Assembly (NCBI GenBank): GCA_040954595.2
Contig: CM082598.2
Location: 124,001-188,000, forward strand
Source of the DNA: Balanoglossus misakiensis
Taxonomy: Eukaryota; Animalia; Hemichordata
DNA length: 64,000 bases
Reading direction: 5' to 3'
Position 1 is the stretch's first letter. Every line of letters begins with the position of its first letter. The translations under genes were made by a program, and so were the position numbers. This document shows positions 27,690-57,625 of this stretch, piece by piece. Under the pieces are notes generated by a model. It saw only the letters and a program-made list of their open reading frames with translations, made no database searches and was not told where the DNA came from.

Positions 27690-31491
<3,802 letters not shown>

Positions 31492-33215
31492 CTATATTAA
31501 GAGAAAGATAAACCTGCTCAATAAAAAAACACAAGTAAGATACACCCCTTCATTATTTGAAAGCATTGTTTTAAAATCATTGGTGAGTATATAACAATAC
31601 CTTTGACAGCGAATCGAGAGTTTAATGATATATGCAATTTTCAAAACTGGTCAAAGACAAATTTTTATGATGAATTGAATATCCACAAGAGAAAAGTATC
31701 TCTCAGAAACAGTAAAGGCTGGTCCATGTAATTTAGTGCAATATTTCTGAAAGATTTACTCAACAAGAAGAGATGACATTGCCAATACCCGTTGAGCCCG
31801 CCCTATCACGGATAGTTTTTGCACTTTTGAAACACCTTTTCGATTATCCTGAGAACATCAATATGTCAAAAAATCCCCCCAAAGTGCCCGTGTGGTTTCT
31901 GACCACTTGTGAACATGAAACTCTATAAAAACAAGTAAATATGTACAACTTACCAGATACTTGACTTGAACAGTTGATGATCACAAAAAAGAAAGTCTGC
32001 AAACAATTTTCATTAAACCAAGAAGGCTCTGGAAATATGATATCATGTATGTACTGTATAAACCTGTATGACTATTTTATGCATCCAGGATGTTGGTTTC
32101 AAACTGTTATCTGCAGGCAAAGTATTAACCAGATGTCACTCAAGCCAACATTTGCATTTATCCTCCTCACATAAGAACTACCGGTACTTAATCCGTAAGG
32201 AAAGGGGGTTGATGATGCACTGGCATATTGTATTTAATCAATGATTGAGCTGTTGATTGTACCCATAATATCTTTCTTTATATTAAAACAGTTATGTATA
32301 AGTTTAGAAATAAGTTTGGAAACATGTCTGTCAATCAAATAAGCGTTGCTTCCACATGATGTTCTATTCGCGAATATGCCATAGGCAACAGTTGGTTGTA
32401 ACTTTTCTTCCATTGATGCATAAGTTGAACAATTTGAATCCTTCCGTTTTAATCCCCCCAGCCATTAATCTCTCTTTCTCCATCTGTGAATTGTTTCCGT
32501 TTTAGCCATGTTGCCATCATCTTATAATCGCTTTTATTCTATCAGTTTATCTGGCTTAAGTGGTAACATGCTGGTTGTGTACAGATTTGTGCGTATGTGT
32601 GTGTTTGCTTGTTTGTATGTTGAGAGACAGAGCAAGATTGTTTCATTAACAAAAAGTACTAAAATGCTTCCATTGAGTACAGAAATAGCTGTGTCATGTT
32701 TACAGACTTCTGTTCACAGCTATTTCTATACTCAATGAAAGCTTTCTGTATGTCATAGAATGCAGTAAAAACTGATTGTTACTGGAAGTGTCAGATTCAA
32801 GAAATATATCCAGAAAAGCAGAGAAATTAAGCCAATTCTGTTGTTTCTTTATTCTCTTATAGGAGGATAAACCATTGAGACATATTAACTGCATGTGGGA
32901 TTATCGACAGAATTGTCTTTTAGCTGCAAAGACTTTCTTTTCTCTGGATGGATAAATTCTGTCTCATATAAGAGAAGAATCCCATTGCAAACACAGATGC
33001 ACAACTCTACCCATATTTTAAAATCCACATTTGAATAAATTCATTATGAGAAAGACTGTAGCACACTATTCTGAAGTCCATATTTCATGGTTCAGAGAAC
33101 AGATGTCTCAGTATCAAAGGTAACTTAGCTTTTTCCAATCTAAGGAAGTAAACATTAAGACGAGGTTTACTGCTACTCTAAGACGTCTGTTGTGCGCTGT
33201 GATGTCCCTTGTACT

Positions 33216-36346
<3,131 letters not shown>

Positions 36347-38710: not shown

Positions 38711-41700
38711 TCATCCCATTGAAAGCAAGGAATTTATAGCGGCTTCCTTGTCTCCATTATTTGCCTCTAAGATTGATCGGACCACTTGTTTCTCAACATT
38801 AGGGAACATTTCTTGTACAGCATCTATGTCTGCATCTGTAATTGCTACTGCTGTCTGTTGTGGCCTCTGCTGTTGATGTTGTGGTGGTGGTGGTGGTTGA
38901 ACTTGTTGTCCCTGTGGTGCTACTTGCGCTGGTATTGGTTGTCCTAAGTACAGAGAACAAATATACATGATAGATACACTGTGTGAATGCATACAGCAAA
39001 ATACATAGCCAAAGTTTTGTCCTAAGTTTTCCCTTTCTTCAAGCATGTAAGATAGCAAAAGTGGCTGCATTGGCTTGTAATGTAAACTTCATTTTTTTTC
39101 AGGATTTTCAAGACTGCCTCTAATACAATGGTTGGTTAATCCTCCCTCCCCTTCCATTTATCCATGCTCAATTGGTTTAATAAAATACACCACAACAAGT
39201 TACAGACAGTGGCTCTGAAAAGTGTTCAGCTGGAACCATTCCTCCCATTTCCTATTTCCTCAGCCCTCCCTCCCTCCCTCTTCCATTTATCCATGCTCAC
39301 CTGGCCCATAAGGTACGCCACCATAAAACATTGGTTGTGGCATCATTACAACTGGCATTTGTTGGGAATACATCATGGGTCCTCCACCTGGTGCTTGTGG
39401 TGTTTGTTGTTGATAAACTACAGCACCGGTTGGGGGTGGTTGGTGCGGCTGAAAGATGAAAAATACAAAGAGAATGATTGACACTTTCAGATTTGGAAAT
39501 CACTGCACCATTTCTTTGAAGTACTAGATACAAATGCAATGTGCTCCCACGTTTAATTTGTGTAGATGTACATGAACAAAAAGGGACAGGTTGTTTAGTT
39601 GCTTCTAACAGACCATTATTTTTCTGAATGTCCGTCCCCGAGGCACATACTGCCGTAAGATGATATCAAGATGATTCCTTCAGTATTTTTTGATCATTCT
39701 TGCAAACAATCATCTAGACAGACAGACAGACAGACAGCCAACCAGACAGACAGCAGATAGACAGACAGAGACATTTTCAACCTACATGAACTGCTTCTAT
39801 ATGTATCATGATGTACACACTTACAGTGAAGGTAAGTACAAGATTGATCATTCCCTCTTTGTCTTCTCCTTGCTTACCACTGAGTGTATACCAGTCATCC
39901 TTAGTTTCTCCAGACATGACCATCTCTGCAATGGTAATGTGAGCCCATGCTATCCTGTCATCAGTGGTAAATGATTTCTGTGGACAGAAAGCAACATTAT
40001 TGGACAATTTTTGATGCTGAACATAAATAAATAAGATTCACCCCATCAACTGATGAGCTTTCTCGATTAAGACTTTGAAATATGTTTGATTCAAGGAGAT
40101 CTCTAACTTCTCTGGGCAAATATGTGATTGATTCTTGTTACATGTGTACAAAACATTCAAGTTTTAAGTCTGTCTTACTGATGTTGAGATAATACAGATC
40201 TGATAAATGCTCAACTAAGTGATCTTTGATGCCTACCTTATAAGGAAAAAATGATTCTTCTCCTGAAATAGCGAAACCCGAATGTAGTTGATACTTTTTT
40301 TTAGTTGTATGCCTAGTTTCTTTCAAGTCCATCAAATTTGCTCTGTAATATCGTGCTTAAGTGAAGTGTAAGAAAAGGGTCCTGTTGCTTCACAGTTGCG
40401 CGGCTGTCGACCAAAAACATTCACGTGCGCGGGTGGGAGAGTCAAGCCAGGCGGCCAATGTGACATCAATGTTTTTACAGTAGTAACTTAGAAGGATTGT
40501 GACAGAAGCTATAGACAGTGGCTACGGTAAAAACACTCCTAAACTGCTAGCCTTTCAAGTTTCAATAAGAAAACAATGAAAAGAGCAAAGACATGGAATT
40601 GGGGAATTTCACACTTTGTGTCCATGACACAATTCATTTTGCAACTTATGCCGCACACCAAGTATCACTGACCTGATTCTATTTAAAGTCCAACAAATAA
40701 TTTCTTGCTTCAGTTAGGTGTTGTGTCGACACATGATTTGATCACATGAAAATATCCCACTTACCTCATCAAAGATTTCCAGATAGAAAGAGTCCACACC
40801 ATGTGGGAGATTACACTGTATGACTTTATTCCATCGTGGATTTTTGGCTCCGTTGTGGGCTGTTGGTGTCTCAAACACGGCATGCCCAACTCGAACACGA
40901 CAATACGGATCCATTTTAGTCAGTCCATAATTCTTGGCTAGCTTGCCCTGAAAGTAAGACCAGCATGTTATACAACCAACATACACATATCAATGTACTG
41001 CAACTAAAACTAGCAAAGAAGTTGTCTGCATTCTACTAGAAAGTAATACAGCAATACTTTCATAGGCATTTTCTAAGGAAATAGAACACACACATAAAAT
41101 AAAGCAACATGAAAACAGTGTTTATGATGCAGAATCGTGACTTACTTGAGCAATTGTTATGCTGAGCCGTCCCTGACTATTCTGTTGGTAAGCAGCAGAA
41201 CCACCCCATCCTGGTTGCTGATACTGCAGCGCTCTCGCAGTCTGTTCATCAAGACTCATCTGACTTTGTTGATCAGCTGACGGTATCCGCAGGAAATCTT
41301 CAGGTAGTTCTCCAATCATCACCTATGATGAAAAAACATTCCAGAAAAGAGTGAGAATTGTCATCCACATTTACAGTCTATCCTTCACATCAACTAATTT
41401 TCAAAGCTCCTGCACTGATGCTATCCTAATCTATGTACCGGTCCAGTATAAGTATATGCAGTCAAGTGCATATACTGTAAGGAGGGTAAAGTTGTGTTTT
41501 GATAATCACAGACAAAACTACAGTAACTGTAACATTGCCTTGTTTTTCAGCCAACATGTACAAGATACTCAATAAGTCGCGTGAAGTGGCTGAGTGTGTA
41601 CACACTCTGACACATACTTTTGTTTGTATAAGTTTCTAATGACTAACAAATTCACAGAATGGAATATTCTGTACAAGCACTGCATCTCTTCCTTGGGCCA

Positions 41701-44700
41701 ACCTACATCACTGAAATAAAATAATCAGGACATTCCAAAGAATGTTGACAAGAGGGGAACGCACACACAGAGACAGTATGTTTCACCTTTAATGTTTCCA
41801 AGACTCCACAAGACCCTAAGATATATTATGTGGCAAGGCAGTTTATATGGGAAGACATTCCCATGTGACACATGGCAAACAACACATGACCCATCATGCT
41901 GAACATCACAAAAGTTGCATGTTAAACACTTTTCCAACTGTCGGTCTCCCAAATAATATGTAATTAGGTTCTCCACTATATTACCACAGATACCCTTGGA
42001 ATATCAATGCAGCCATGTCAAGGAGAAAAAGCAATGTTACCACAGTTACTAACAATCTATTTCCCAACACTTGGAGAGCAAAAACATTGTTGCACAACAT
42101 GGAAATTTCACACCTGTGCAATGAACTACTGAAACAATTGTCTCTAAGGAATTTCCAAGAAGTAAATTCTTGACATATGTTTGATTAATGAAGTCTATCG
42201 AAGTCTGTGCTGTGGACATGTACATTGAACTTGACCAATTATTGGTAAGAAAAAAAGAAAATCAAAGTGTGGCCACTGGGGGCGCTATCTCATACAAGAT
42301 AGAGTGTTAACATGCTGCCCTATTGAGAGTACTATTTGCTGTTTGCACAGGAGCTTTGGGTTCATTTGATGTGAAGAAAAGAGCTTTAATGAACATTCTG
42401 AAAGTTAAAATCTTTACCTAGAAATGTTCACTTCAACAAGATATCTTTGTTTTTCACACACACACACATCCTACCAAATTACAATACACAGATAAAAGTA
42501 TGGGGTGAAATGATAACTTTTTGTGGAACTTTTGACACCTCATTCCTTGTAATCACAATGACACCAATTCTACACCATAAGTATATGTCATTTATGGAAT
42601 TTTAACTACTGAATTTCAAGGCATAATTATACCTGTTGTGCCTTGTCACTGCTCAACACACCGGCCTGAAGGAAAACAAAGTACATTTGATCATTAAAAT
42701 GAACAAAGTAACAGTAAAGAAGACAGGAATACTTCTAAAGATGTTCTCGCGGATAAAAAGTAAGACAGTGAAATGCAGAGAAGATTGGGAAACAACCAAG
42801 TTTAGTAGAATTTTAGACACCTCCGCGTTGATTATGGAACTATTACAAGTACATGCATCATGAAAATGGAAATCTACCCAGTGCATACATGGATGTGCCA
42901 ACACCAAATATAGATGCTTTCCTCCCTTATTTTTTGTAAAATGGGCTGACACCGGACAGAATGTAATCAGGTTGTTTCATTTCACTACAGAACAACAGGG
43001 GTGCACAGTTTGAATTAATTCTTCAGGCAAGTTAGTACATGTAAAGCATGTAACTTCACTTACAGAATTTCAGGTGATGAAATTAAAATTAAATATGTGG
43101 CAATTTCAAAATATAACATGCAGTCACCTCATTTTGGTTTGGTTTCGATCCAACTGCCTTCACAGCACTTGAATATATATCCAGAACTTCCCACTCTTCA
43201 CCGATCGATCTTGAACTTATGTAAAGGTCGTCAGTTTCAAGGTCATCTTGGCTGTGGGGTTGACTGTCAGAAGTACTGCTTTCATCCATTGGACCAGAGG
43301 AATCAACACTGTCTTTTGTTTCAGGTGTTTTAGAATCTTCAGAGTTGAGAGAGTTAAGGCTCGGGGTGACGGATGACGGCTCGACTGACACAGTTTCAGA
43401 ACTCGGTGCAAAAGTCTCTTTCTTTGTTTCATCAGGTTTATTCAAAGTTGTGTCTGCCACATCATTTGTCTCAAAATCTTGTTCCGTCAGAGTTGAGTCA
43501 GCTGTTGCCATTTCTGTGGATGGATCAGTCATCAACACTCTTTCAACGCTTTTAGCTGCGACACCCTGGTCTCCACTAGATTGAACAGCAGCTTGCCCAC
43601 TATCTGTTAAGTTTGCTCCTGAAATGGTGGTTGATTCTGCTACTGCTGCAGGATGTAGACTTACTTCTGAAGCAGTAATGTCCGTTGAAGTTTCCCTATC
43701 AGACACAGTTCTAGCTGCAGTGAGTACTGAAGGATTCACGACTGTTGTAGTCGCAATTGTCGGCCCAGATTTCGTCCAAGATGTGGCAGCACTTCCAGGT
43801 TTGACAACATTGACGTCATCTACTTTCACAGGCCGCTGCTGCACAGCATCTGCACGCTGCAGTGCTGCTGATGAAGCAGCTGCAGTTCTTCTTGCTGCAA
43901 TGGGTACTGCAGTCTTCTCCTTTGCCAATGTTTGATTTCTCCTTGAAGAGGTTATCAAGGATCTGGCTGGGAGACTGGTTTGCTTCTTCATCACATGACC
44001 TGTTTCAGTCTTTGAGTGCAAATGATGAGTTTTATCAACAGGTGTTCCTGGGGAGGGTTTTGCACTGAGATCCATAAACTCATTCAACAAGGCCACATAC
44101 TCAGGGTCCTTCATCAAGCTCACTGTGAGTTCTTCCTCACTGGGAATAATGTTGAAACTGGCACTCTGATTGGTAAATTGGGCAGGTGCAATCCCTTGAG
44201 ACTGAATCTGACTGGTTACTGGGTAAGCACTGACAGTCCTTTCATGTTGAAATGCCATTTGATATGGTGAGAAGTTAGCCGGATTCACAGCATATGGATT
44301 TTTTACGCTACTGTTCAGTGAGAACATTTGGGTCTGAGAGGGGACATTAGCCTGGCTGTAAAAATGTGCATTGGGCTGTTGATAGACATAACTTGTGTTG
44401 GTAATTGCTCCAGATGACAAACTACTATATGGGTACATGCCCATGGGTTGACCTGGTTTCATTGCAGTGGATCTTGCAGTTGTCATTGCTGCTGAAGAAC
44501 TCATCATTTGATTGGTGGCTCCACCTGGTTGACTTGCATAATAATATGCAGAACTTTGATTTGGGATGTATGATTGGTGGCCTGGGGTGTATGCAGAGTT
44601 GATGTCGCTATTTACTGGATAAGCTGGTTGTTGTGCTGATCCAGTCAAAGGACAACTTACTGGTTGAATGCTGGCTTGGTTTTGACAAGTAACTGAGGTA

Positions 44701-47700
44701 GATTGGCTGGAGACAGCGGTATTCACTTGAGATTCACTTCTTTGAGGATTATTCTGACTGTATCTAATTCCAGCATCAGGATTGGCTGTTGGCACGTAGT
44801 GCTGTTGTGATGGAAGAATCTGATTGGTTGATGTTGGCTGGGCCACTTTGACCGATTGCTGCTGTTGAGTTGTTTCAATGGTGGGCAGAAGATGACCTCC
44901 AAACTGGTAAGGAAGCTGTCCTTTTGGTGTTAGTTGGGACATCATTTGTGTCGGGGGTAGATTTTGCAAATTTGTGTAATGAAGGTTCTGATTGGCCATT
45001 GATGTCATACTCACAGGAATGGGCTGCCATTGGTCAGGCATTTGACTTCCTGGTGTAGATCTGGGTTGTTGTGACAGCGACATTCTTGCAGGGTCTTGGA
45101 TTGGCTGCTGTATCAACTGCGGCTGCATGTGATTGGCAGTAGATGATATCATATGGATGGACTGTGGCTGGGCTAACATTCTCTTTTCAATTGCTGCAAC
45201 TCCGTGCTGAAGTTGTGACTGACTGCTGACTGCAGGGGCCTGGAACTGTTGTTGAATTGATTGTGGCTGCATCTGATTAGCTGGTGCAGTGCTTCCTTGT
45301 TGCTGTAGTTGTAGAGGCATGTTGTGTTGCAGTTGGGTTTGACTGCCAAATGCTGAAGCTGGGTATTGTCCCTGCAGCTGACTCATCACTGGTGTCAGGT
45401 TTTGCTGATGGATTTCTTGCTGCAGATCTGCTGTGGTTTGGAACTGTCCTTGTGGTTGGGTGTGTACTGCTATGGGCAGAACATTCTCCTGCATGACTGA
45501 TGCAGTCCCATGTTGCCGCATCAGCTCTGACTTTGATGTTGCTGAGGTTGCTGCTTTGGTTTGCTGTCCTGCAGACTGATTGGCTGTCATGGCTCCATCA
45601 TGTTTCTGCATCACAGCAACCTTACCTGTTGACAACACTCCTGTTGGTTGCAGTTCGCCTTGCATTTGGTATGTTGCTGTTGCTGCTGTTGCAGGCAATG
45701 GCTGAAGATGTTGATGAGTAGCGCTCTGATCACCCAGCTGGGACTGACTAGGCTGTGGTTTGGTTTCTTCTGCTGCATCTCGTTCCTGCTGCAGTTGATG
45801 CTCCAAATCTGCTGCTACCTTGTGTTGTTTCTGGTTTTCTTCTGAATGATGACTTCCTCTCACAGTGTCTTGTTGAACGCTCTTAGATTGCAGTTCCATT
45901 GCATCTTTGGTGTTATCAGCCTGTTTTTCCACTGTCCCCTGTTCATCTGTTGATGCTTGACTGGCCTTCACAGGGATCAGTGGGTCCTGCAGCTTGGGGT
46001 TCTCTTCAATGCTGTTCTGGGGAAATATTGCCTGTTGATTGGGGTTGAGAAAGGTGGCTGGGTTGCTTTGCTGGTACATTTGTGGCTGAATGACTGCTGG
46101 TTGCTGGGGATACCCATACAATGGGAAATACGAACGGGGATATTGCATACTTTGCTGGACATTTGAAGGGAATTGCTGAGTTGCTTGTGGAAGCAACAAT
46201 GCTGGTGTTCCAAAATAGTCCACTATTACTGGCTGAGCTGATTGGTTTATTGGATACAAACCAGGTTGCCAAACTGGCTGATTAACCAATGGTCGCACAG
46301 CATTGTCTGTTGAAATGGATGGAGTGATCTGCTGTTGGCCGATCACAGCAGGAGCACATGGTGACACACTTTGTTGGAGGGGCAACTGTGTGGCTCCACC
46401 AGGCAATATTTGCTGCTGGTTGTAAATGCCTTGGTTGATAGGATATTGTGGAGTGTTGTAAATTGGTGACTTCTGTTCATCCTGTGACTGAGTGGCTGAT
46501 GATACTTGTTGGGATAATACTGATTGTGGCAATAATGGAGTTTGTGCCATCTGATTGGTTGACGCTGAAGGTACACCGGGTACATCAGGTTGAGTAATTT
46601 GATTGGCTCTGCATGTAAATGACATATTGTAATGTTGCTGAGCTGTCAAAGGATAACTGGTTGTTGGGTTTTGTACTGGCACTGGACAGTCACTGGGTTC
46701 TATGTTGACCCCCGGTTCTTTAACCACAGACAGAGCGCACTGCTGGTTTTCTGAGATCTGGTTACTTGTTGATGTGACACCTGGTGGGTTCACTTCTGGA
46801 TAAACATTTTGATTGGGTGTACTTGGAAGCTGAGGTTGGATTGAGACTGGAACACTCTGTTGCTGCTGAACTGGCTGTTGCAATTCACTGCCAGTAGTCG
46901 CTGCAACATTTGACACATCACTTGAATGAGTCAATGATCCATCAGTGGCTTGAAAATGTGTGCTACATGCTGATTGGTTGTTGCTTTGCAGGGATGCCAT
47001 ACCAGTGATCTCATTGGTTAGTGTAGGAGAAATAACATTCAAAGCTGACATCTGATTGGTCACAGTCGTGTCACACCTTGCATTTTCCATATCCAACTTA
47101 TTGCTTGCTGATTGTATTTCTGGACAGAGTGAAGAAACTGTTTCTTGAATTCTGTTCGTAGAACCACTTTCAGGTTGATTCAACACCTCATTCTTTACTG
47201 GACTTGCAACAACACCAGTAACATCAACTGCAAGTTGCTCTTCTTGTGTGTCCTCTGATATTTGTACATTTTCAACAGGCTAAGCAAAGTCAAAAAGCAA
47301 ATCATTAATATTATAGAATGCTGTACTAATACATTCTGTAAACCAAACTGCATTCATGTGGATCAATTGATCAATTAACTATTGATCATCAACTTCATGA
47401 CACGTCACTGATATACAAATCAGCAGTTACTTAGGACTTGGTTTTATTTAACAAGAAAGGTTTATAGCATATGTCTTTTGTTCTGCTGATGGATGTTTCT
47501 TTTACAAAATGTTAATGTAGTACACACACACAAACAGGGTTTGTACACTAACAGCAGGCTTTCCATGACTTTTAGAATCTTTCCAGCAGTCCTCAAGGAG
47601 TTTTCCTTTTTTTGCAGGAGAGATAAGAGAAGTTATGTGCTAATGTTTCCACCAATGGCCTCCATAGCTGCATCAGTTGCTAAAATCCTTTCTCATACAA

Positions 47701-48809
47701 TGCCATTACTTAGCACTAAATGCCACAGCACACAGACCTACAAGCACCCTCAACATGTATCATCAGAAATAACCCTCCACACTAGACAAGACAATTCATC
47801 AGAGAACTGATCCCCAAGATCTATGCACAGCAGTAATGCCAAACAAACTGCTAGCACACTGCCACAAAGGAACTTATTTGGGGAACTTTACTAAGCCAAT
47901 AATATTAGTCACCTGCAAATTGTTTATGCTGGAAATACATTTAACATTTACTAACAGGACAGTTTGTAATATTGTCTGTGCATGAACTTCCTCAAACAAT
48001 GACAATGTACACACGTACTACAATGCACTAATGAGAAACCTGGGGATGCTGTATTTGATACATATGTGGATACAGTACATCATTGATCAATACTTGTAAA
48101 CTATATATACAAATTGTACACATCACGTAAATCAATAGTCCAAGAAATGGGTACATGTATCTCTCTGGGCTACTATCACTATGGCAAATAAGTGCATTGC
48201 TATCCCATGAAGAGATCAAAATTGGAACCCTATCCCCCAGTGAATGTGGTAGAAAAAAGCCTACCCCCCCCCCCCCCCATGAGTTTGACCATTTCACCCA
48301 TAATTTTGATGAGTTGTACTACATTGATGGCGGTGGGTTGCTTCGTTGATTATACACGGATATACACCACGTGACGTAACCTTACCACTCCCTGGCCCTT
48401 CAGCTGCTTTCGGGGAGGGGGGCGTGGCTGGGCTACGAATCTACAACAACTCAAGGGCGACTGGAAACATGTACATTGTACATGATTGCTGAAAAACGAT
48501 CCATATTCACACGTGAACACAGACCTGTACGCAGGGCCAGGCTTAATGCAGCGAACCCGGATATCATAAAAAAAATACCTTAGGCCTTCATCATAGCCAG
48601 GCTACGAATAAACTACAGCCCACTGCACTGTATACATCTCAAGCTCTGTCGCATAAGAAATTCGCAGACTATGCTAACCTGTGATATTTCTTAGAATATA
48701 AATGCCAGACAATCAGTTTAGAATCATTATTTGTCTCACTTAGCAAATATTTCATTATTTTGCTTCAATTACTGACCTGACTTCGTCTTGTTTCCGTCGT
48801 CGACGCCAT
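38711..48809 (-). CDS. TOLLIP: Toll-interacting protein (TBD + C2 + CUE), about 308-aa standard isoform
   Basis: Exons 48777-48809 ([11 protein letters not shown]), 41146-41322 ([13 protein letters not shown]), 40765-40947 ([16 protein letters not shown]...[10 protein letters not shown]), 39825-39977 (DDRIAWAHI...WYTLSGKQG), 39301-39448, 38711-38943 (CUE: [30 protein letters not shown]). Confidence 0.95.
43128..47279 (-). CDS. Putative giant 4,152-nt cassette exon of TOLLIP (1,384 aa, Q/P/S/T-rich low complexity)
   Basis: Stop-free frame (1365-aa ORF track plus 31 upstream codons); acceptor tttgcttag|CCT at 47279; donor GAG|gtgact at 43128. Phase 0/0, matching TOLLIP exon 1 and exon 2. Confidence 0.75.
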
Positions 48810-49287: not shown

Positions 49288-51146
<1,859 letters not shown>

Positions 51147-52501
51147 AGTCTCTTCACAAATCAATAAATGTTGCTTTAATGATCCAACCGTTGAATAGGC
51201 TCAGGTAATCTAAATCTCACATCGTTTTTTAATACGCATCATTCCACACGTACAAGATACTAGTAAATCACTGCAGTATATTGCATTATCACGGGGATAC
51301 ATCATGCATGCCAGATGTTGACACAATGACAGATGCATGCAATTGTTTCTCATATGAAACCATTCAACCAAAACGAATGTGGAATTATTAAAGTCGCTGA
51401 GTTGTATCAGTTAAAAGCATACAGGCATGTTCAGGCTGTAAAGGTGTGAACTTTCAACTTATTGGGCTACAGTCTTGCACCCACGGATGTAACCTAGACA
51501 TTTTGAAGATAACTATACGGATTGACCGTATATTTCAAACTCTTCCCAAAATGCCTGCCTTGTCTATGGTTCATTTACAAAAACAACATGTAGAAAATGT
51601 ATAAATCCTTTGCGTTAGAAAAATCAATAAAATGAGAATTAACCTGGTTTCCTTGGTGATGAGTATTTGACTTTTGATTGACAGTGTAACAGCTTTCTGT
51701 CTTCCGTTTTAACTTTCGAGTAACTGAACTCTTTCATAATTACATACATTTACGTGTGTGGTGGATGCAAACGCACTGTGCCAAATAAATGGTCGGCCAC
51801 ATGACGAGACTCTGTCGCTAGATCATGTTTTATATTTAGAGCTGAGACAACTACGAACCTATTCGTTTAGAGAATTGCCTAATTTTTGAGGTCACTCACC
51901 TTAAAAAGTGAAAATGTCAACACGACGTGATTGTGAGTCATCGGTATTGACTTCATTATAAAGAGACCACCACAGATTATCGCATTAGCCCAATAGCCTA
52001 ATTTTGTTGACATCAAGATTTCTTCCCCTAAAACGAAGTTTAAAAAGTACGAATTACAGAAATTATCAAGATATCTTGTAGCGAATAGAAAAAATGACAT
52101 TTCATCTTCCTTGCCCTCTGCAATCATTTTCGTTCTTTATGCACAGTACTAGCACCGTGCCTCGTTCGCGAGAATCATTCACTAAACAAATAAATTAGCC
52201 TTTTCCAGCCAAAGTCCAGTTGTAAGGCCACCGACCATTACCTCTAAGGTTATTTCTGACCAACGGCATGTAACATGTAGTTGTGGAAACGTGCTATGTT
52301 TTTGTTGTGATACAGGGAAACAGTTCTAAGTTTGTTACGTCAATTTAGAGAAACCCCCATGGTTATTTTTGTCTGTAGCCCTGTAGTGGGGAAACTCCAC
52401 GGCCAGCTTATACGTCAATATGAGTCATTGTCAGTAGAGGCAGCTCATACATTTAAACTTTTTAGTATTAAGTTTGAAGTTTTGCAGTGAACATCGGCGA
52501 A

Positions 52502-56667: not shown

Positions 56668-57120
56668 TTATGATTTCTTCTCATTCGGGTCCATATTCTG
56701 AACATCATTCAGAACGTCTTGAAGATGCTTTATATACTTAATGGCCGCGCGAAGTGTCTCCACTTTGCTCAGGCGCTTTTCAGGATTGTCCAGGGGGATG
56801 TGCTCTCGCAGACGTACATAACCCTCGTTAACGCATCGTACTCTCTCTCGCTCCCTCTCGTTCCTCCGGCGGATGAAAGACGGCTCGTAGTCATAGTAGC
56901 CGAACGGATGCGGCAGAGGAACATATCCTGGGTAAGATGACATGTACGAGGAAGGATAGATGGGATCCACCACGGCATTCATAGCGATGTGATGATCGTC
57001 TGATCGCGGTTCGCCCGTCATCACAAGAGCGTTTCCGGGAGGACATTCGGTCATCGGAATTCCCAATTGAACACACGTCGGTGTGGAGTATGCTACGGGC
57101 TCGTTACTGCAATCCTCCAT
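56668..57120 (-). CDS. Achaete-scute family bHLH transcription factor, ASCb (ASCL3/4/5) type, single exon, 150 aa
   Basis: YEPSFIRRRNERERERVRCVNEGYVRLREHIP...KRLSKVETLRAAIKYIKHLQ; EPxFI and CVNEGY are ASCL3/4/5-type signatures. Confidence 0.92.
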   Translation of the reverse strand: MEDCSNEPVAYSTPTCVQLGIPMTECPPGNALVMTGEPRSDDHHIAMNAVVDPIYPSSYMSSYPGYVPLPHPFGYYDYEPSFIRRRNERERERVRCVNEGYVRLREHIPLDNPEKRLSKVETLRAAIKYIKHLQDVLNDVQNMDPNEKKS

Positions 57121-57625
57121 CTTAGCCTAATACTTAACTTACGACCTCGTGTAATTCTACCAAATAATACGGTCTTTCAGATATTTCCTTGGTCCGGTTT
57201 ACGATTATCCTCTCGGGAATATCGCTGCATGTATTGTAATTGGAGTCCCTCTTATATGTATGATAACGTTTCTCGCAAGATTGCCGGACGACGTAATCGA
57301 ACTTCACCTGAAAGTCGAAAACAACATCAGAATTTTAGAACACAACTTGAAGCAAACACCAGTTTAGCGCCAGTAAAAATTGTTCTTCATTGTTCAGCCT
57401 CGGTGCTTTTTATGTCTCGCCATTAATGGTAATCTGAATTTCAGAATTTATTCAGATTGAACCACATTCGCACGCTGATTAAACAAGTCGGATTTATTAA
57501 TGACAACACGTCGGTTATTGATACAGCGGAAGCCATAATGGAAAAGAAATATTATTTATGTTGTTCGCGATGACAATATGGTTGTGAAGTTTGATTAGTT
57601 CCCAAACGAACTATAAAATGTTAGA

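Follow-up and report, generated by a model that had tools for sequence, protein, structure and literature searches.

TOLLIP is a compact adaptor that takes part in endosomal sorting, aggregate clearance and IL-1R/TLR control, and the median length among the 122 matches that we fetched is 275 aa. Its C2 domain binds PI3P and carries LIRs, and its CUE domain binds ubiquitin. According to one paper, the linker of the human protein binds misfolded clients, and F21A is a mutant defective in TOM1 binding (PMC10690474). The reported human isoforms lack exon 2, lack exon 3 or include an alternative exon, and no giant form is among those that the review describes (PMC8086045). A much larger design is documented for ankyrin-G, where a single 7.8-kb exon lies between the UPA and death domains (PMC12798937). 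The gene described here is similar in that an adaptor or scaffold gene would gain a far larger isoform through a single multi-kb exon that keeps the frame; no homology is claimed. The giant ankyrins have been established as alternative isoforms that function in neurons (PMC12798937), whereas the TOLLIP insert is a predicted one and falls inside a short N-terminal binding region.

The window that we analysed is a stretch of 64,000 nucleotides from the acorn worm Balanoglossus misakiensis, and the TOLLIP exons and the motifs within them lie on its minus strand. The TOLLIP gene that it contains resembles human isoform A, as described in two sources (PMC8086045, PMC10690474), in its six core exons, TOM1-binding region, C2 domain with two LIR-like motifs, Q/P-rich linker and CUE domain, but it differs by a predicted insertion of approximately 1,400 residues after residue 11. 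The coding part of exon 1 (48777-48809) comprises the 33 nt, or 11 codons, that begin the TOM1-binding region, and 10 of the 11 residues are identical to those of XP_070543526.1, a RefSeq model of 1,937 aa from Ptychodera flava. Exon 2 (41146-41322) encodes the rest of this region, with the residue equivalent to human Phe-21 (54 of 59 residues identical to the same model), and PDB entry 2n31 was aligned to it by way of P0004, a related Logan protein (E 6.6e-9). The C2 domain, which Pfam places at residues 1696-1797 of the P. flava protein, occupies exon 3 (40765-40947; 60/61 identical) and exon 4 (39825-39977; 48/51 identical). The latter carries W-x-x-I and W-x-x-L, in agreement with the human LIR sites given in PMC10690474. 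The exon map and composition assign a Q/P/M/Y-rich linker to exon 5 (39301-39448), and the coding part of exon 6 (38711-38943) completes the linker and adds the CUE domain (Pfam E 7.1e-14 on 38714-38941) and the stop. The hallmarks of the family, namely an N-terminal TOM1-binding region, a C2 domain with two LIR-like motifs and a C-terminal CUE domain, are present, with the first of these split after residue 11 in the long form. A broken Cys-rich stretch at 41572-42261 gave no significant Pfam or PDB match.

Within intron 1, positions 43128-47279 form an open frame of 4,152 nt, or 1,384 codons, with no stops. The remaining frames across the same interval contain 63 and 75 stops on the minus strand and 69, 83 and 52 on the plus strand, and when the bases of this DNA were shuffled 200 times, the longest ORF did not exceed 239 codons (mean 127). 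An initial annotation had described an uninterrupted exon of this size on the TOLLIP strand, bounded by an AG acceptor and a GAG|GTGACT donor in the same phase 0 as the flanking TOLLIP exons and entered in the ORF track with a GTG start, and our recount agrees on all of these points (the GTG is at 47186, and the first ATG is codon 64). It had also stated that the frame closes immediately outside both splice sites. This holds upstream, where an in-frame TAG directly ahead of codon 1 provides the acceptor AG, but downstream of the donor the frame continues for 12 codons before a stop at 43089-43091. As in the ankyrin-type case, a single multi-kb internal exon is seen in frame and with canonical splice sites. 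By a scoring matrix for which just 16 acceptors and 15 donors were chosen by eye, both sites are middling, with the acceptor ranking 22nd of 535 AG sites and the donor 24th of 476; a donor with a higher score is located at 43063, past the in-frame stop, and its use might close the frame.

We propose, with a probability of roughly 70%, that a conserved giant coding stretch is spliced into TOLLIP, and that the predicted disordered N-terminal arm it encodes is likely a cargo-gathering scaffold. The splicing of the giant exon into the B. misakiensis gene, taken by itself, we consider very likely. The evidence that carries this view comes from XP_070543526.1, which consists of TOLLIP residues 1-11, an insert of 1,633 residues and the core from residue 1645 onward. 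By BLASTP the insert is colinear with the giant exon (31% identity over 1,458 columns, E 5e-94), and the Smith-Waterman score of 1217 compares with 188+/-16 for 60 global shuffles and 329+/-29 for 60 local shuffles of 20 residues. In tblastn, residue 13 of the P. flava protein falls at 47276, which is codon 2 of the exon (a piece that is weak by itself, E 0.16), and residue 1628 falls at 43158, close to the exon end. The two proteins thus have in common TOLLIP residues 1-11, a Q/S/T/P-rich insert whose composition and charge follow the same order, an 11-residue end piece, the TOM1-binding region, C2 and CUE; they differ in that the P. flava insert has 1,633 rather than 1,395 residues, with 31-36% identity between the two, and in that XP_070543526.1 is a gene model whose database name is not TOLLIP. 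Since the cores are identical at 162 of 171 positions and the inserts at only 36%, the two sequences represent different species in which the frame has been kept open through many indels. Given an open stretch at the same place in a second acorn worm, these animals likely make a TOLLIP of approximately 1,700 residues.

This orthologous insert, found at the same junction in the P. flava model, makes a coding TOLLIP exon the most likely explanation, in preference to a repeat or, as the initial annotation had argued, to a nested gene. It is true that a 1,333-codon frame runs from the ATG at codon 64 to the stop at 43089, such that a separate, nested low-complexity gene might have been fused to TOLLIP by gene prediction in P. 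flava. We regard this as quite improbable, because homology ends at the giant-exon donor and then resumes in a candidate micro-exon whose length is exactly as expected, because the TAG ahead of codon 1 is the acceptor itself, and because no AATAAA occurs between the stop of the frame and exon 2, where only ATTAAA is present (42390 and 41793). Exact look-up of the stand-alone ORF products from four starts (GTG not being read as Met) recovered none of the four from the protein collection. A frame derived from a transposon or repeat, or produced by chance or by misassembly, has already been largely refuted and retains a negligible likelihood. The earlier claim that the peptide lacks transposon domains is borne out by the lack of any Pfam family at E<=10, including transposase, RT or gag domains; no second copy exists within the window, the frame holds only five short tandem arrays of 15-31 nt each, and the P. 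flava counterpart is likewise open.

The candidate micro-exon, overlooked in the initial annotation, is a phase-0 unit of 33 nt (11 codons) at 42633-42665, between the giant exon and exon 2. Its acceptor is the top of the 535 AG sites in the intron, and its donor is weak (score -1.0, rank 213 of 476). It agrees in length and position with the last 11 residues of the P. flava insert, although only 3 of 11 residues match and the P. flava boundary is drawn from the protein alignment alone; of seven open 33-nt AG..GT candidates, it is the only one that scores positively against these residues. The predicted product is therefore 1,703 aa with the micro-exon and 1,692 aa without it, as against the roughly 1,690 aa of the initial annotation, and the direct 43128->41322 junction given there probably passes via the micro-exon. 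Under our proposal, exon 1 would be joined to the giant exon, then to the micro-exon and then to exon 2, yielding 1,703 residues. The insert would enter after residue 11, within the TOM1-binding region, and would leave intact the part with Phe-21, the C2 domain, the linker and the CUE domain, while the micro-exon would supply 11 new residues ahead of exon 2 and so take the place of exon 1 there.

That the micro-exon equals exon 1 in coding length might instead indicate that exon 1 is replaced rather than extended. The giant frame would then be expressed from a promoter of its own within the gene, from another first exon or from an ATG (codon 64 or 77), and would be spliced to the micro-exon and exon 2 alone. 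Codon 77 encodes a Met that is aligned with a Met in P. flava, the first 100 codons are only 24-30% similar between the species, and a human TOLLIP isoform with an alternative exon is mentioned in PMC8086045. However, exon 1 is fused directly to the insert in XP_070543526.1, similarity begins at codon 2, right beside the AG, and N-Q-M-type motifs recur throughout the giant exon, so that the conserved Met is not special. We therefore judge replacement of exon 1 to be unlikely.

If the giant exon does extend exon 1, it seems appropriate to question whether it is a cassette, and one that may be tissue-specific, as the initial annotation had proposed. Both exon 1 and exon 2, which begins at 41322, are in phase 0, and skipping of the giant exon would preserve the TOLLIP frame. 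A short P. flava TOLLIP should rank beside XP_070543526.1, and none appears among the 120 matches listed of 441, so the long form could predominate. Moreover, XP_070543526.1 forms a cluster of one member and its name lacks the 'isoform X' suffix with which NCBI marks genes that have multiple isoforms. These acorn worms might thus produce TOLLIP mainly or solely in the long form, with the giant exon constitutive, a view that we take seriously while leaning against it. The phases permit clean skipping, the splice sites of the giant exon are middling, a protein collection may miss some isoforms, and in P0004, which starts with an almost identical exon 1 and agrees at 138 of the 171 core positions, exon 2 follows exon 1 without an insert. 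We give about even odds to the short form being made as well.

The peptide encoded by the giant exon is rich in Q (13.3%), S (12.2%), T (8.8%) and P (8.7%), much as the initial annotation had described it, and also contains 8.7% A, 3.8% Gly, 2.6% Tyr and 1.9% Arg. Codons 201-430 and 601-1045 are prion-like in composition, with a net charge of -2 to +2 and 19-27% Q+N. A first block, Q/P-rich and enriched in Tyr (codons 201-430; 45990-46679), is 26-52% identical to P. flava per 50 residues, and a second block, rich in Tyr, Ser and Asn (codons 881-1045; 44145-44639), is among the best-conserved stretches, with identities of 60% and 52% across codons 951-1050. The motif [TA]NQ, a pattern picked after inspection, occurs nine times in the B. 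misakiensis arm (shuffle mean 1.6, maximum 6 in 1,000) and 17 times in the P. flava insert (shuffle mean 2.2, maximum 9). A LIR-like W-x-x-L preceded by acidic residues is present near the end of the giant exon (43182-43193). It is absent from P. flava, and for this reason we dropped it as a core feature.

It had been suggested that the arm could form condensates. The two low-charge Q/N/S/P blocks, which contain 5-9% Tyr and occupy corresponding positions in both species, are compatible with a mainly prion-like, condensate-forming domain rather than a tether for clients, and PMC8394947 considers oligomerisation and phase separation in connection with aggrephagy receptors, including TOLLIP. However, no conserved aromatic stickers were found in the arm: aligned Tyr residues are identical in 17 of 35 cases, not significantly above other residues (p = 0.21), and aromatics overall in 20 of 55 (p 1.0). 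Because Tyr is not preferentially conserved, the condensate idea is weak. In addition, FUS-type domains differ from the arm in Tyr, Gly, Arg and Pro content, and approximately 40% of the giant exon is acidic or basic S/T-rich spacer. We consider a condensate-forming role rather doubtful.

Adjoining the second block is a conserved acidic and hydrophobic motif (codons ~1045-1075; 44055-44147), predicted to form a helix pair and offering a candidate docking site. AlphaFold, applied to 265 of the 1,384 residues, placed helices at model positions 235-243 and 246-259, with a pLDDT of 69-77 in this block; values were below 50 for 227 of the 265 residues, which the shallowness of a two-row alignment alone could cause. 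FoldIndex rated the folded core as more disordered than the arm and is therefore uninformative. A resemblance of the helix pair to the STI1/DP helical motif found no support from profile or structure: no Pfam match was obtained, the best PDB sequence hit was an unrelated protein (E 0.42), and Foldseek returned no match at E<=0.001 with the low-confidence model.

We return to the proposed cargo-gathering scaffold, whose function we approach through composition and analogy only. The Q/P/Y-rich blocks are similar in composition to TOLLIP's own misfolding-sensing linker. The C2 domain might hold the protein to autophagic membranes or to endosomes that carry PI3P, the blocks and repeated [TA]NQ motifs might bind aggregated or misfolded cargo multivalently and at a distance, and the one helix pair that is conserved might dock a specific partner; the combination of all three is a tentative suggestion. 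Cargo gathered in this way would be destined for disposal in lysosomes. Equally tentative is the broader notion that, in one branch of acorn worms, TOLLIP has changed from a compact endosomal adaptor and now exists mainly or only as a long multivalent cargo scaffold of 1,700-1,900 residues with a [TA]NQ array and a new helical docking site, in which one exon of 4-5 kb and a micro-exon of 11 codons would split the TOM1-binding region. A TOLLIP enlarged five- to six-fold and conserved between two acorn worms would represent an architecture new to the family. If true, it would offer a natural experiment on what a long low-complexity arm does to the capture of cargo, and on how exon definition works for a 4-kb exon beside one of 33 nt, with a reach limited to two species.

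Our literature search found no paper describing the giant exon or insert. Nothing was recovered by a word-based search that took the entire giant exon as its query (7,987 candidates scored) or by a HMMER search with a two-row profile of codons 814-1078 (1.84 billion representatives), and both missed XP_070543526.1, which lay within the length range of the former; they are therefore uninformative on absence elsewhere. A metagenome scan gave 125 pattern matches with none confirmed, and in the ESM Atlas the whole P. flava protein led only to TOLLIP/C2 clusters (0.76-0.88), with no usable match for residues 1200-1400. The insert has been found in two species only. Three proteins of 572-2,000 aa with a TOLLIP core were recovered and one has the insert, which is consistent with the lineage restriction suggested previously. 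The other two, P0122 and P0123, likewise exceed 570 aa but have RRM or cytochrome b5/oxidoreductase Pfam domains in place of a low-complexity insert, and each appears to be a product of adjacent gene models that were fused. The P. flava TOLLIP itself is hidden in databases behind an unrelated name, 'platelet binding protein GspB-like'.

TOLLIP lies on the minus strand, as do all the features described below, and comprises six exons totalling 308 aa in the window. The coding part of exon 1 (48777-48809) ends in phase 0 and exon 2 (41146-41322) starts in phase 0, followed by exons 3 (40765-40947), 4 (39825-39977), 5 (39301-39448) and 6 (coding part, 38711-38943). Within intron 1, the candidate giant exon (43128-47279) is a stop-free run of 4,152 nt (1,384 codons); the remaining five frames carry 52-83 stops each over this interval, and shuffling its bases 200 times never left an open run longer than 239 codons. 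The AG acceptor, the GAG|GTGACT donor and the phase-0 flanks proposed in the initial annotation were confirmed on the sequence together with the open frame. The further claim that the frame closes just outside both splice sites holds on the acceptor side, where the AG is part of an in-frame TAG immediately 5' of codon 1, but not on the donor side, where 12 more open codons precede a stop at 43089-43091. Both C and A are commoner in the sense strand of the exon than in flanking intron (C 0.26 vs 0.17). We found no Pfam family in the exon, consistent with the claimed lack of transposon domains, and no additional copy within the 64-kb window that would mark it as a repeat; its five tandem arrays are all short.

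The evidence that carries the case comes from a second acorn worm. TOLLIP relatives were gathered by a search with exon 3, and among the 120 of 441 matched proteins that were listed, the nearest by identity (98%) is P0003 (RefSeq XP_070543526.1), a Ptychodera flava gene model of 1,937 aa that contains both the C2 and CUE domains. Its N-terminus is TOLLIP residues 1-11 (10/11 identical to exon 1 of the window), after which come an insert of 1,633 residues and then the TOLLIP core, restarting at residue 1645. The giant exon aligns to this insert at 31% identity over 1,458 columns (E 5e-94), with a Smith-Waterman score of 1217, where sets of 60 shuffles reach 188+/-16 (global) and 329+/-29 (local). 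Near the two ends, tblastn places residue 13 at giant-exon codon 2, in a piece that is itself weak (E 0.16), and residue 1628 at window position 43158. Judged from these alignments, giant exon and insert are homologous. Between window and model the core is identical at 162/171 positions and the insert at 36%, and that the frame is still open despite such strong divergence and many indels suggests selection for the protein. These identities indicate that the window comes from a relative distinct from P. flava, most probably an enteropneust hemichordate. The giant exon is a genuine feature, conserved in a second acorn worm whose database model already includes it under a misleading name. The homologous insert follows TOLLIP residue 11 in that model, and we put the probability that the giant exon is spliced into TOLLIP at roughly 85%.

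The P. flava protein bears the database name 'platelet binding protein GspB-like' and is therefore missed by name searches. TOLLIP cores occur in proteins of 572-2,000 aa in only three of 386 candidates, namely P0003 and two with unrelated Pfam domains. The latter two, P0122 and P0123, are joined to RRM or cytochrome b5/oxidoreductase domains and are probably gene-model fusions, and a catfish entry (P0002) has tandem C2 repeats without a CUE domain.

In P0003, 11 residues separate the last part that aligns to the giant exon from the core, and a candidate micro-exon at 42633-42665, an open phase-0 AG..GT segment of 33 nt, could supply their counterpart. Seven open 33-nt AG..GT candidates lie between the giant exon and exon 2, and only this one scores positively in BLOSUM against the 11 residues (13, compared with -6 to -20 for the other six). 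Its peptide ranks second among 935 open 11-mers of the interval and matches P0003 at 3/11 residues, the P. flava boundary being inferred from protein alone. By a small splice-site matrix, for which 16 acceptors and 15 donors were chosen by eye in the window, its acceptor ranks 1/535 among intron AG sites and its donor 213/476. The predicted product is 1,692 aa without the micro-exon, in agreement with the roughly 1,690 aa first proposed, and 1,703 aa once the candidate is counted.

Skipping the giant exon would preserve the reading frame, and its splice sites are middling by the same small by-eye matrix (acceptor 22/535, donor 24/476). A short TOLLIP, the Logan protein P0004, has a near-identical exon-1 start and a core identical at 138/171 positions, and joins exon 1 directly to exon 2. 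The long form may nevertheless be the main TOLLIP, because no short P. flava form appears among the 120 of 441 matches listed, where it would be expected to rank beside P0003, and because P0003 forms a single-member cluster and its name carries no isoform suffix. A donor at 43063 scores 9.8 against 5.8 for the giant-exon donor; it lies 64 nt further on, past the in-frame stop at 43089, and its use would shorten the protein or provoke decay. Strong donor-like sites within the exon (44660, 45014, 43664 and 44234) all fall on codon boundaries and could yield shorter in-frame forms, although Val-Ser codon pairs create such sites by chance.

The insert has the same order in both species: an acidic start, a Q/P/Tyr block, a charged linker, a Q-rich stretch, a Tyr/Ser/Asn block, a conserved motif, a basic stretch and an acidic S/T tail. 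AlphaFold modelling of codons 814-1078 from a two-row alignment gave pLDDT below 50 for 227 of 265 residues, together with a predicted helix pair at codons ~1048-1072 (block pLDDT 69-77) that had no significant match by sequence or fold. TNQ and ANQ are the most enriched tripeptides common to both species; in a pattern spotted by eye before counting, and so post hoc, [TA]NQ occurs 9 times in the giant exon and 17 times in the P. flava insert, while 1,000 local shuffles give means of 1.6 and 2.2 and maxima of 6 and 9, respectively; the motif might be what remains of ancient internal repeats, or a linear binding motif. The insert has no membrane-spanning stretch (top 19-residue hydropathy 0.84), and an LIR-like motif at 43182-43193 is missing from P. 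flava. The earlier suggestion of a condensate-forming protein fared poorly, in that neither tyrosines (17/35 identical, p 0.21) nor aromatics (20/55, p 1.0) are conserved beyond other residues in the insert alignment; a mainly condensate role for this arm seems to us quite unlikely.

The insert enters after residue 11; the Phe-21 part, the C2 domain, both LIR-like motifs, the linker and the CUE domain all stay intact. The GAT domain of TOM1 folds the N-terminus of the TOM1-binding domain of TOLLIP and prevents C2-PI3P binding (available text of PMC7952518, PMC13386808 and PMC12519566; PMC4781976). The available text of PMC10690474 describes F21A as a TOM1-binding-defective mutant, direct binding of misfolded clients by the C2-CUE linker and ubiquitin binding by CUE, and that of PMC8394947 an aggrephagy receptor role. 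If the micro-exon supplies 11 new residues in exon 1's place before exon 2, long TOLLIP may retain or tune TOM1 binding. The linker in the window (25% Q, 27% P, 5% Y) and the Q/P/Tyr block (19% Q, 14% P, 5% Y) share a Q/P/Y-rich composition, which leads us to propose, tentatively and with the odds against it, that the arm is a long multivalent low-complexity tether of membrane-anchored TOLLIP that would widen client capture and hold one specific docking site.

Ankyrin-G has a 7.8-kb giant in-frame exon (available text of PMC12798937); the TOLLIP exon is alike in design and is known here from the gene sequence and the P. flava model. According to the available text of a review, human TOLLIP has four isoforms, none described as giant (PMC8086045). 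We found no publication on long TOLLIP or on TOLLIP in Ptychodera, subscription literature and supplements being outside the scope, and no mention of TOLLIP in the hemichordate papers listed, although isoform tables could sit in genome or transcriptome supplements. The giant in-frame exon is of a known kind, and what is new is its presence in the TOLLIP family, where we found no description.

Below the micro-exon, intron 1 holds a broken Cys-rich coding-like stretch (41572-42261) with stops and frame changes, which is possibly a decayed zinc-finger/CUE-type pseudo-exon. It had no significant match in Pfam or PDB; among the proteins compared here, its end piece (41572-41724) has its top local match in a nematode Tollip entry, over a CUE-like stretch (a weak score of 41). 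Downstream of TOLLIP are two tandem genes (~30000-36300) that by eye resemble GDP-L-fucose synthase paralogues. Upstream, Pfam identifies a sulfotransferase-domain gene (49291-51150), which ends ~480 nt ahead of the TOLLIP start codon, as well as a bHLH exon at 56671-57126.
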